Positions 11,704 to 13,923 of a DNA stretch of 25,332 nt are shown one piece after another. Each line of letters starts with the position of its first letter. Position 1 is the stretch's first letter. The stretch is from a virus. A program made the position numbers and the translations under genes. The notes below the pieces were generated by a model that searched no databases, was not told where the DNA came from, and saw nothing but the letters and a program-made list of their open reading frames with translations. The DNA is taken from UHGV virus genome UHGV-0346448. One strand, 5' to 3'.

Positions 11704-11717
11704 GTGGAGAACTCTAA

Positions 11718-12296
11718 ATGATTAATCCTTCTGAAATTGGCAAAACGGGTGAAATGGTTCGTCTTCGTACTCTGGAAAGTATCTGGGTTCAGGGGAAGCT
11801 CCGCATGTGGGGGCGTTGGTCTTATATCAGTGGAGGGACTAGCGGTAACATGTTTAACCAACTGCTTGTATCCAGCAAAATTACCAAAACTGCAATCAAC
11901 GATGCGCTGCGCCGTATGAAAAAGTCAGGCATTACGAAACCAGAGCTCGAAGCTTATTTGCGCGAAATACTCAACAGTAAAAACAAAAGTAGTCTGGCGT
12001 TTTGCTCGGACGATGAAGGCCTGAAGATTGACGGTGTGATCGCCTCGGTGCTGATGAATAATGATTACCGTTCTCTATACGGTGTGATTGTTGGCCGGTA
12101 TTGTCTGCGTAAGAGCAAGTTGCAAATGGCCAATGAGCTTCATATTAAACATCCTGACTGGGCGCTCATTACCTGTCGCCGCCGAGTTGACACATGGATA
12201 AGTTTGGCCGAATCGCTCCTGTACGCTCCACTATGTGATGCGTTTGGCACAAATAGCGACAGATTTAAATTGCAAAGTGAGCAAGAAAGTGCTTGA
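11718..12296 (+). CDS. Q: Late-gene antiterminator Q-like protein
   Basis: Last gene before a terminated short leader and the lysis cassette; GGAGAA RBS; Trp/Cys-containing pattern resembling phage-82-type Q proteins from memory (not verified). Confidence 0.55.
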   Translation: MINPSEIGKTGEMVRLRTLESIWVQGKLRMWGRWSYISGGTSGNMFNQLLVSSKITKTAINDALRRMKKSGITKPELEAYLREILNSKNKSSLAFCSDDEGLKIDGVIASVLMNNDYRSLYGVIVGRYCLRKSKLQMANELHIKHPDWALITCRRRVDTWISLAESLLYAPLCDAFGTNSDRFKLQSEQESA

Positions 12297-12345
12297 ATTG
12301 TGATAAGCTCGGGACGAAAAGCGAACTGAGCAACATAATAGTAAG

Positions 12346-12370
12346 AACCCGCCATTGTGCGGGTTTTTGC
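12346..12370 (+). terminator. tR'-like terminator downstream of Q (end of a short late leader RNA)
   Basis: Stem CCCGC/GCGGG (12348-12352 / 12359-12363) followed by TTTTT (12364-12368). Confidence 0.55.
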
Positions 12371-12435
12371 GTTTAGGAAAGGCTTGCCAAAAAGAATGAT
12401 GTTATAGTTTTCGAAAAAAATGCAGGAGAATAAAA

Positions 12436-13827
12436 ATGCTCTGTGGAGGTCTTTCTTTGCGAGACTTTATGCATAAACTGCATAAAGTTTTGCGACCAAC
12501 GGGTCCAGTTGTTTCTATGGAACTGTTATTTGGACGTGAAAAACATGTAACCGATCTCGAATTGGCGCTTTATGCTACAGGTCGGCATGCTTTCATTTAT
12601 GGTGATCGCGGAGTAGGAAAGACATCCTTAGCGCAAACTGTTGCTTTTAAGCTGCAGGAAGATGCTGAACCTATTTTGGTTGGCTGCGAGAAAGAATCCA
12701 CTTTTTCAAGTGTCATGAATGACATTATTTTGCGAGGCACACCTCAGGATAAGAAAATCGATACACAGGGATGGAGCTTTGGCTTAAATGTGGCTGGAAT
12801 TGGTGGTATCAATGCTGGTCAAAATCAAAAATATAATTATCCAGAACTGAAAATTGACTCAGTTTCTGCAGCCGTTCGGGCGTTGCAATTTTTAACTAAA
12901 GTTCACTCAAAGATTCCTTATATAGTTATCGATGAGTTTGACCAAATTGACTCTGATGAAGAACGACAAAAGTTTGGATCACTCATTAAACAACTTGGTG
13001 ATCAGGCGTGTGAAGTAAAATTAATTTTTACGGGGATTGGTGATTCTCTCGTTACTTTAATCGGAGGGCATAAATCAAGTGAGCGACAAATACATCAGGT
13101 ACATCTCGATAGTTTACCATGGAATGGTCGTTTTCAAATAATTGATAATGCTTTCGATGAGTTTGGCCTGACTGTCGATGATTCTGTCCGCTATAAAATT
13201 GCGGGTCTTAGTGACGGGTTCCCGAACTACATTCATCTTATTTGTGAAAAAATCCTTTTAACATGTCAAAGCTCAATACGTGAATACAGCTCTGTTGATT
13301 ACAACCTTTTCATTAAAGGGTTAAATGATGCAATTGATTCAGTCTCGGAAACTTTAAGGCAAAGTTACACGGATGCAACAGAGGGACGTGATGAGTCATA
13401 TAAGCATATTCTTTGGGCTATGTCCGATATGGCTGATTTGACCAGACATAAGACTCATATATCAGAATCGTACGTTAAAATTTGCAAATCGCTTGATGTA
13501 ACACCTTTAGATAAATCCACGTTTGAGCGAAAGTTCAATGCATTGAAGAAACCGACATTTGGATGCATCATCATCCCTGCTTTAGGGAATCGTCCATCTT
13601 GGTTTCGATTTAGAGAAAACATGCTTCGTGGTTATATTCGAATGAGAGCGGAGCAGCATGGACTTGAGTTGGACTTCCAAAATTATCGTGTTGCTGGAGA
13701 GCATTCTGCTAGGGCTATAGGCAAATACTCTGCTTATAAACCGTTAACTAATGTTGAAGGACGAGTAGCCAAGCTAAGAGGTGATAACGACTGGCTTGAC
13801 GACATAAAACCAAATCCTATTAAGTGA
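12436..13827 (+). CDS. AT-rich moron: ORC/Cdc6-like (AAA_16 / Arch_ATPase-type) P-loop NTPase, 463 aa; candidate single-gene anti-phage defence protein
   Basis: Walker A GDRGVGKTSLA; Walker B YIVIDEFDQ; AGGAG RBS; sits between Q/tR' and the holin; much more AT-rich than flanking phage genes; own terminator. Confidence 0.8.
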   Translation: MLCGGLSLRDFMHKLHKVLRPTGPVVSMELLFGREKHVTDLELALYATGRHAFIYGDRGVGKTSLAQTVAFKLQEDAEPILVGCEKESTFSSVMNDIILRGTPQDKKIDTQGWSFGLNVAGIGGINAGQNQKYNYPELKIDSVSAAVRALQFLTKVHSKIPYIVIDEFDQIDSDEERQKFGSLIKQLGDQACEVKLIFTGIGDSLVTLIGGHKSSERQIHQVHLDSLPWNGRFQIIDNAFDEFGLTVDDSVRYKIAGLSDGFPNYIHLICEKILLTCQSSIREYSSVDYNLFIKGLNDAIDSVSETLRQSYTDATEGRDESYKHILWAMSDMADLTRHKTHISESYVKICKSLDVTPLDKSTFERKFNALKKPTFGCIIIPALGNRPSWFRFRENMLRGYIRMRAEQHGLELDFQNYRVAGEHSARAIGKYSAYKPLTNVEGRVAKLRGDNDWLDDIKPNPIK

Positions 13828-13849
13828 CGATTAATGTGAATAATTAAAT

Positions 13850-13875
13850 CAGGCTGCCTTCGGGTGGCCTTTTTA
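13850..13875 (+). terminator. Probable terminator after the ATPase moron
   Basis: GC-rich imperfect hairpin (aggctgccttcgggtggcct) followed by TTTTT. Confidence 0.4.
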
Positions 13876-13923
13876 TTTCCAACACAGCACCCGCAAATAA
13901 TCGCAGGTGAGAGATAACTACAA

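Follow-up and report, generated by a model that had tools for sequence, protein, structure and literature searches.

What is a 463-residue ATPase doing between the late antiterminator and the lysis genes of a lambdoid prophage? The question is raised by the virus genome UHGV-0346448, a stretch of 25,332 nucleotides that we refer to in its full length as the window, in which a single gene at 12436..13827 (+) encodes a protein with clear P-loop motifs. A preliminary description of this DNA had presented the gene as an orphan ORC/Cdc6-like ATPase, inserted in a cargo hotspot and possibly serving anti-phage defence. The analysis reported here finds that the gene is functional accessory cargo, that its predicted fold is a single ORC/Cdc6-like module lacking an effector domain, and that its family moves among prophages, plasmids and islands. 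Our favored reading, which we hold tentatively and at slightly less than an even chance, is that the protein is a solo switch ATPase of the ORC/Cdc6 clade that mobile elements carry as cargo and that functions in conflicts between elements, its most probable role being anti-phage defence or exclusion.

The ATPase and its predicted fold

The reading frame was confirmed in the window, and its coordinates, strand, length and ATG start are exactly those first proposed. This coding sequence of a solo ORC/Cdc6-clade AAA+ ATPase corresponds to WP_021562676.1, labeled 'ATP-binding protein' in RefSeq. The gene is AT-rich, as had been claimed: comparison with its flanks gives a GC content of 0.398 against 0.50–0.55 for its neighbors and 0.496 for the window, while GC at third codon positions (GC3) is 0.312 against approximately 0.48–0.66. 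Among 5,426 complete E. coli genomes, 56 carry a prophage with a 100%-identical match to the 2.5-kb stretch running from the antiterminator gene Q to the holin; several of the 56 are labeled sequence type 131 (ST131). Purifying selection on the gene is strong, with a ratio of nonsynonymous to synonymous substitution (dN/dS) of about 0.015 relative to a 93.5%-identical copy; against the Enterobacter copy, the proportion of synonymous differences (pS) is 0.78, and thus saturated, and that of nonsynonymous differences (pN) is 0.054. The gene is real and functional, and is kept by purifying selection.

Two resources illuminate the protein: a family alignment of 41 sequences, with relatives 34–84% identical, and an AlphaFold2 (AF2) model with a predicted local distance difference test score (pLDDT) of 83.6 and a predicted template modeling score (pTM) of 0.77. 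The Walker A P-loop GDRGVGKT (residues 56–63; 12601..12624, +) lies within the longer stretch FIYGDRGVGKTSLA (residues 53–66), and its G56, R58, G59, G61 and K62 are invariant across the alignment. In the Walker B motif IVIDEFDQ (residues 162–169; 12919..12942, +), which is of the DExD type as in Cdc6/ORC, D166, E167 and F168 are invariant and D169 is kept in at least 90% of sequences. The clean Walker motifs of the preliminary description (GDRGVGKTSLA and YIVIDEFDQ, the latter spanning residues 161–169 with a modeled strand at 162–166) are present as stated, their core residues being invariant in all 41 sequences.

Between the two motifs the model places a helix-extended-helix insert: strand 80–83, helix 90–101, a low-confidence loop at 102–142, helix 143–156, and then the Walker B strand. 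The insert loop proper, which follows strand 2 (residues 106–140; 12751..12855, +), is predicted to be disordered, with pLDDT below 50 for residues 106–133 and the helices 90–101 and 143–156 flanking it. It has the highest column entropy in the family; when copies of 72% identity or more are compared, 83% of its positions vary, versus 35–53% in other long segments. As the fastest-evolving segment, behaving as expected of a recognition surface, this loop is a candidate specificity determinant. Further along, the motif H212-x-S214-S-x-R217 (13069..13086, +) has all three numbered residues invariant, and R217 sits two residues before strand 5 (219–224 in the model), a position that fits an arginine finger and makes this residue a candidate for that role.

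Sequence searches of the PDB, whether with the single protein or with the family profile, retrieved no more than ArsA, Clp and Lon, each through its P-loop, so a comparison of folds was needed. This comparison supports the ORC/Cdc6-like label given at the outset, as ORC/Cdc6 structures match the ATPase better than any STAND structure does. The hallmarks described for the ORC/Cdc6 clade—an insert after strand 2, an arginine at the base of strand 5, and a helical bundle (PMC12839542)—are all visible in the alignment and AF2 model, the arginine being R217. The C-terminal region, for which a sensor or effector of unknown kind had been suggested, is instead accounted for in the model and by Foldseek as an ORC/Cdc6 lid followed by a winged helix. 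The AAA+ lid or helical bundle (residues 229–282; 13120..13281, +) comprises modeled helices at 229–241, 249–258 and 263–279, and its R232, G261, P263 and H267 are invariant. Its motif G261-F-P263 ... H267 places the G-F-P element between lid helices 2 and 3, a position that we take to be equivalent to both the GxP motif of STAND proteins and the sensor-2 site of Cdc6. The ORC/Cdc6-type winged-helix domain (residues 319–393; 13390..13614, +) carries a net charge of +5 and a wing hairpin at 379–392 bearing conserved R386 and W389. It is followed by a closing helix, ENMLRGYIRMRAEQHGL (residues 394–410; 13615..13665, +), the most conserved C-terminal element: within its pattern ENMxRGYxRMxAE, E394, R398, G399 and A405 are invariant, R402 is kept in at least 90%, and the share of variable positions among copies of 72% identity or more is only 12%. 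As modeled, then, the ATPase is one module of AAA+ base, lid and winged helix with an ORC/Cdc6-like fold, and it carries neither an effector nor a separate sensor domain.

How does this protein relate to those already described? The Pfam models that it matches above cut-off are AAA_16 (39.8 bits against 32.6) and AAA_22 (30.1 bits against 27), while others fall short: PF01637 ATPase_2 reaches 24.7 bits against a gathering threshold of 33.2 over residues 32–187 only, PF24389 reaches 13.1 against 27, and TIGR02928 (Orc1/Cdc6) reaches 35.6 bits against a cut-off of 181.3, covering residues 29–115 only. The closest structural relatives are the PF01637 'archaeal ATPases' PAB2304 (2qen) and SSO1545 (2fna). 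Sequence identity to the archaeal Orc1/Cdc6 initiators (PDB 1fnn, 2qby, 1w5s and 2v1u) is only 13–16%, and the sensor-2 site holds G-F-P in the ATPase in place of the GDAR-type arginine of Orc1/Cdc6. Relatives of the same clade are also found in defence: in BREX-type systems, ORC/Cdc6-like ATPases with winged helix-turn-helix domains recur as scaffolds for DNA sensing (PMC12839542). Those related to BREX include BrxC, BrxD and the DUF499 ATPases, of which BrxC, at 1,200–1,300 residues, belongs to a system of six genes that includes a methyltransferase and PglZ, whereas the present protein has 463 residues and no conserved partner.

Membership in a named defence system was rejected. The libraries scanned were PADLOC-DB v2.0.0 and the anti-phage equivalogs of NCBIfam 20.0, including the DS series, together with Pfam, and no defence model from them matched the ATPase except over the P-loop or below threshold, in agreement with the preliminary description, which had named no system. 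The five PADLOC matches at E≤1, among which BREX models are absent, include mad8 (2e-4), PDC-S01, IetA and JetA, each extending over some 25–45 residues and mostly the P-loop. In NCBIfam, DS41_1 scores 15.8 bits against a required 370 and ATPase_Sll1717 scores 19.2 against 75. WP_021562676.1 was not found in the literature searched, which did not include the study of defences in E. coli prophages by Brenes & Laub 2025; nor does the ATPase appear in the DefensePredictor text or the searched parts of its supplements, and a metagenomic-selection preprint and a STAND survey held nothing relevant to it. We found no sign that this family has already been described: it is uncharacterized, absent from the defence models of PADLOC v2 and NCBIfam 20.0, and not seen in the literature searched.

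The prophage slot and its transcription signals

The location of the gene provides a second line of evidence. On its 5' side lies a Q-like late antiterminator (DUF1133; 11718..12296, +), matched by Pfam DUF1133 at 2.9e-88 and Phage_antitermQ at 1.1e-08 and assigned to phrog_753; on its 3' side follow a lambda-family holin, a product that RefSeq labels glycoside hydrolase family 24 (GH24), for which a Pfam scan gave no match, and Rz. The placement between Q and holin was therefore correctly described. Sibling prophages share a backbone of KilA-N, DUF968, Q, slot, holin, GH24, Rz, HNH and terminase, and the cargo of the slot is unrelated from one sibling to the next. In the prophage of E. coli O103 WL1467 (NZ_CP193491.1; L017:1842-4235), for example, the slot holds the two-gene system DS-1 on the opposite strand, with NCBIfam scores of 408 bits for DS1_1 and 375 bits for DS1_2, both over cut-off. 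The DS series, which includes DS-1, was experimentally validated according to the DefensePredictor paper. Because a sibling holds DS-1 there, the Q-to-holin slot can be said to carry anti-phage cargo, and its standing as a cargo hotspot, also claimed initially, is well supported. Content of the kind found in Stx phages was looked for as well: there are no tRNAs, and no Rfam model matches within the slot. Close relatives of the ATPase fill the same slot in prophages with three different lysis/packaging modules. One such prophage, with a 76%-identical ATPase in this position, encodes a protein of the Acb2/Tad1 hairpin-domain type, a family of anti-CBASS and anti-Thoeris sponges, between its lysis and terminase genes (L184:9498-9779 and L185:9498-9779).

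The idea that the ATPase gene alone was inserted at this site needs correction. Homology to the sibling E. coli prophages ends at about 11712, a few bases from the DUF968 stop codon, and restarts at 13864–13922, in or just past the 3' terminator of the ATPase gene; the exchanged unit in E. coli is accordingly Q plus ATPase (approximately 11712–13864), with a terminator of the tR' kind between the two genes. In an Enterobacter prophage (L020), the block 11718–13880, from the start of Q to beyond the terminator, is 78% identical at the nucleotide level while the flanks differ, and Q and the ATPase gene form one 2.15-kb mosaic module in prophages of the Enterobacteriaceae. This co-travel is lineage-specific, since the gene 5' of the ATPase in E. 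roggenkampii is only 24% identical to Q.

What might transcribe the gene? Between the Q stop codon (12296) and the ATPase start lie a terminator hairpin, a candidate extended −10 element and a Shine-Dalgarno sequence. The tR'-like intrinsic terminator (12346..12374, +; hairpin 12346–12365), read from the sequence, pairs AACCCGC with GCGGGTT around a CATTGT loop and continues into TTTGCGTTT; a terminator scan also gives the hairpin, but on the minus strand. Its stem is kept with a differing loop in Enterobacter L020 and in L184, and E. roggenkampii L182 has a different hairpin at the site. The candidate extended −10 element TGTTATAGT (TGnTATAGT; 12400..12408, +) has TGGTATAGT at the matching position in Enterobacter L020 and TGATAGAAT in E. 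roggenkampii L182. Seven nucleotides 5' of the ATG is the Shine-Dalgarno AGGAG (12424..12428, +), the GGAG of which is kept in three of four aligned copies, and the cassette is closed by an intrinsic terminator called by the scan (13851..13878, +; hairpin 13851–13870), which reads AGGCTGCC-TTCG-GGTGGCCT followed by TTTTTATT and marks the right edge of the swapped module. In Enterobacter L020 the stem of this terminator is kept and its loop changed, with homology stopping just past the T-run. The ribosome-binding site and terminator of its own that had been ascribed to the gene are thus both in evidence. Taken together, the Enterobacter copy retains both terminator stems, the TGnTATAGT element and the ribosome-binding site, while the loops and the −35 region drift. 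The sole match of a sigma-70 scan near the gene, TTGGCA-16-TAAATT (12244–12271), was considered as pR' and set aside because the sequence is not conserved in the Enterobacter copy.

Transcripts unmodified by Q would be expected to end at the tR'-like hairpin, and expression in a lysogen would therefore need the putative promoter at 12400–12408, which lies downstream of tR' and could drive the gene. In lytic growth, read-through by Q would transcribe the ATPase gene as well. With its deviant GC3, the conserved terminator stems on either side, the candidate −10 element, and presence or absence among siblings of the same backbone, the ATPase gene shows the features of a 'moron', and is accessory cargo of a lambdoid prophage.

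Distribution of the family and a possible role in element conflict

A profile search run exhaustively over 1.84 billion representative sequences retrieved 4,990 proteins at E≤1e-3; at E≤1e-30 there were 956 clusters. The best 150 of these 956 are nearly all 410–470 residues long and match the profile end to end, one 576-residue protein being the exception; no domain fusion that could betray an effector was seen among these 150. The ATPase also matches phrog_6841, which carries no known function, at 6e-103 over its full length. Relatives occur in 346 of approximately 185,600 species-representative genomes, belonging to Gamma-, Beta- and Alphaproteobacteria and Acidobacteriota, as well as in 87 IMG/VR viral contigs and 80 plasmid records, with relatives of 25% identity in the temperate actinophages Kevin1 and Cashline.

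Genomic context was compared at 78 loci, using crude gene calls, four genes per side and all-against-all clustering. No conserved partner gene emerged: the commonest neighbor family, probably a resolvase (Pfam gives eight Resolvase matches among the neighbor genes), recurs at 11 of the 78 loci and at varying positions, and other families at no more than four. A two-gene system was consequently dismissed, and the gene is the orphan it was first taken to be. The settings themselves are diverse. In Vibrio parahaemolyticus prophages the relative follows DUF968 in a variable region, in Erwinia it lies between an integrase and icd, in an Edwardsiella prophage it is on the cI side and adjoins PDC-M66A/B, and in a Pseudomonas island it sits near an integrase, beside the Gabija protein GajA (1081 bits) and PDC-S28 (941 bits). 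Mycobacterium phage Kevin1 encodes its relative (25% identical; L013:5545-7200) as gp30, an 'AAA-ATPase', directly after a HicB-like antitoxin gene (gp31); the pair is oriented like the lysogeny genes and occupies a variable region running from the lysis genes to the integrase and repressor. In Cashline the relative is between the tail genes and the integrase, again in a variable region that adjoins the lysogeny genes.

Plasmids offer a further illustration. A 44%-identical relative, WP_002211751.1, is encoded on Yersinia pestis CO92 pMT1 (NC_003134.1 66212-67603; L100:7001-8392) and occurs in 63 Yersinia plasmid records, pMT1/pFra among them. On pMT1 it follows parAB at a distance of 385 bp and is neighbored by a RelE/Phd pair and by a block comprising a DNA methylase, ArdA and a ParB-like gene; plasmid maintenance or counter-defence would suit this context no less than defence. 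A distant relative in Nitrogeniibacter aestuarii (L009:4844-9365) is found 30 bp downstream of RtcB, which suggests a possible connection, in this lineage, with a stress operon for RNA repair; it ends an apparent set of Band_7, zinc-finger and RtcB genes adjoining RtcR. The ATPase family moves, in short, between prophage cargo slots, plasmids and islands. Scanning the 266 proteins encoded within two genes on either side with Pfam and PADLOC identified integrases, resolvases, ParAB, McrBC, Mrr, OLD/AbiEii-like ATPases, Fic and PIN proteins, and, among defence genes, Septu PtuAB, Menshen NsnA, SoFic, PD-T4-2, GajA, PDC-S/M and restriction enzymes; genes of mobile elements are commoner than defence genes in this set.

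From sequence, a defence function for the ATPase is plausible, and the reading that we favor can be stated in mechanistic terms. The ATPase would serve the lysogen, and hence the prophage, in conflicts with other mobile DNA. Because no enzymatic domain is present, its likeliest action would be ATP-dependent assembly on foreign DNA or an intermediate derived from it: ATP-bound protomers would assemble by way of the R217 arginine finger upon invading phage DNA, or upon a phage replication or nucleoprotein intermediate, with contacts made by the basic winged helix and the fast-evolving strand-2 insert loop. Such an assembly would cut nothing and would act as a steric block to replication or to late development. 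We infer the anti-phage role, DNA binding, oligomerization and lysogen expression from the TGnTATAGT promoter. In its most specific form, the proposal describes a 'false origin-recognition complex', an effector-less immune family whose ATP-dependent assembly on phage DNA or replication intermediates stops infection; that version we consider unlikely. The closest functional analogy to the proposed mechanism is BstA, likewise a single protein carried as prophage cargo (PMC8585504). This parallel is one of lifestyle only. BstA is, to our knowledge, not an ATPase.

A number of observations weigh against a role in immunity. The extended −10 candidate is indistinct in L184, one of four close copies, a promoter scan did not list the 12400–12408 element, and no −35 is conserved with it among the aligned copies; the ATPase could instead be expressed only late, through Q read-through. 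Genes recognized by PADLOC occur within two genes at only about 10–15% of the 78 loci by a rough count, the association of the family with defence genes is moderate and by our rough estimate amounts to a modest enrichment over background, and housekeeping genes flank some loci. Unlike in many immune sensors, purifying selection is strong across most of the protein. Nor does the fold dictate a role, given that the PDB entries for PAB2304 and SSO1545 name no function ('Walker-type ATPase' and 'conserved hypothetical protein'). Finally, the manner in which infection would be stopped is speculative, as no effector domain is present.

Could the ATPase serve its own element instead? It may contribute to regulation or maintenance—replication, copy control, transcription or host physiology—or to counter-defence, as the linkages to pMT1, RtcB and Q suggest. 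Among the alternatives this is the one to which we give most weight, although we regard it as improbable. No replication, partition or regulatory synteny is conserved across the 78 loci, the position of the gene is wholly different between genera, and the prophage already has replication genes of its own, a DnaT-like gene and P, some 6 kb upstream of the ATPase. Presence is also patchy (56 of 5,426 E. coli genomes, 346 of approximately 185,600 species), and so the ATPase must be dispensable for the elements that carry it. Known counter-defence proteins are usually small, which counts against that variant. An ATPase for transposition or target selection of the TnsC/MuB/TniB/IstB type, or a replication initiator or helicase loader for the element, is very improbable and has been largely refuted. 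No TnsB, TniA, IstA or MuA-type transposase is conserved alongside, sequence matches to TnsC/MuB/TniB/IstB-type families are all sub-threshold, and the TnsC and MuB structures rank below Cdc6/ORC and the archaeal ATPases, with the winged helix fitting Cdc6/ORC best. Replication modules are not located among late genes or at prophage ends, the positions that this gene takes. Linkage to a replication origin or replicative helicase is likewise lacking, the gene lying between late antiterminator and holin with no synteny conserved at the 78 loci; in contrast to archaeal Orc1/Cdc6, this is a bacterial protein and dispensable cargo of prophages and plasmids.

A different route to defence would be a minimal STAND-like sensor, consisting solely of a nucleotide-binding oligomerization domain (NOD), that binds a phage protein, oligomerizes and causes abortive infection indirectly; it might, for instance, titrate away an essential factor of the phage or the host, hydrolyze ATP without restraint, or call in an effector that the host encodes at another site. 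Much in the protein is reminiscent of this: 39 of the 41 family members match Pfam nSTAND1 at E≤1e-3 (best 1.9e-09), Foldseek strongly matches the NOD modules of CED-4, Apaf-1 and plant nucleotide-binding leucine-rich repeat (NLR) proteins at approximately 2e-09, NB-ARC winged-helix domains are among the C-terminal fold matches, and the invariant G261-x-P263 in the lid falls at what we take to be the GxP position. With the STAND NTPases (Avs, bNACHT and nSTAND1-type) the ATPase shares a core of nucleotide-binding, helical and winged-helix domains, a GxP-like motif, contexts in defence islands and prophages, and a patchy distribution. Unlike them, it has neither a C-terminal repeat sensor nor an N-terminal effector, and it possesses an arginine-finger-like residue. 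For the ATPase itself the STAND models of Pfam score below cut-off (nSTAND1 22.4 against 27.1, NACHT 18.5 against 26.7, and nSTAND3/6 too), and the tripartite build of effector, NOD and C-terminal repeat or sensor was not found in the best 150 representatives. We judge the NOD-only explanation to be more doubtful still than the 'false origin-recognition complex'.

Should the favored role of an anti-phage or exclusion factor prove true, its mechanism would not be that of a sensor activating a toxic enzyme, but would work through ATP-controlled binding, and would inform how BrxC and other ATPases of the ORC/Cdc6 type operate within BREX, a system with an unexplained restriction step. If protective, the ATPase would constitute a compact (52 kDa), single-gene, effector-less system spread over at least four bacterial phyla or classes, present on Y. 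pestis pMT1 and in the pandemic E. coli ST131 lineage. It is the missing effector that would make the mechanism of interest if a phenotype exists. A 'false origin-recognition complex' would represent a new mode of immunity derived from the fold of replication initiators; it would also mirror, in bacteria, the evolutionary relationship that connects ORC/Cdc6 with STAND/NLR proteins. Given DS-1 in a sibling, the antiterminator-to-holin slot presents a clean test case for a defence hotspot of lambdoid prophages. Even if the function lies outside defence, this is a large, well-conserved and uncharacterized group of mobile-element ATPases that merits a name.

Other cargo in the prophage

The ATPase gene is not the only AT-rich cargo in the window. 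A second such gene lies between Rz and HNH/terminase (15309–15917, +; 202 residues, GC 0.379, GC3 0.325). Its product is a DUF2441 protein (Pfam 2.5e-11) that matches phrog_9842, which is without an assigned function, at 3.4e-131, and neither PADLOC nor NCBIfam gave a match for it. In sibling prophages the same Rz-to-HNH slot holds iss (O157 FRIK2455) or trkG (AR_0006). In the early region of the prophage, Rfam identifies a full-length sok antitoxin RNA (RF01794, 117 bits) at 487–662 (−), which marks a type I toxin-antitoxin module of the hok/sok kind; hokD is annotated in the matching RefSeq prophage.

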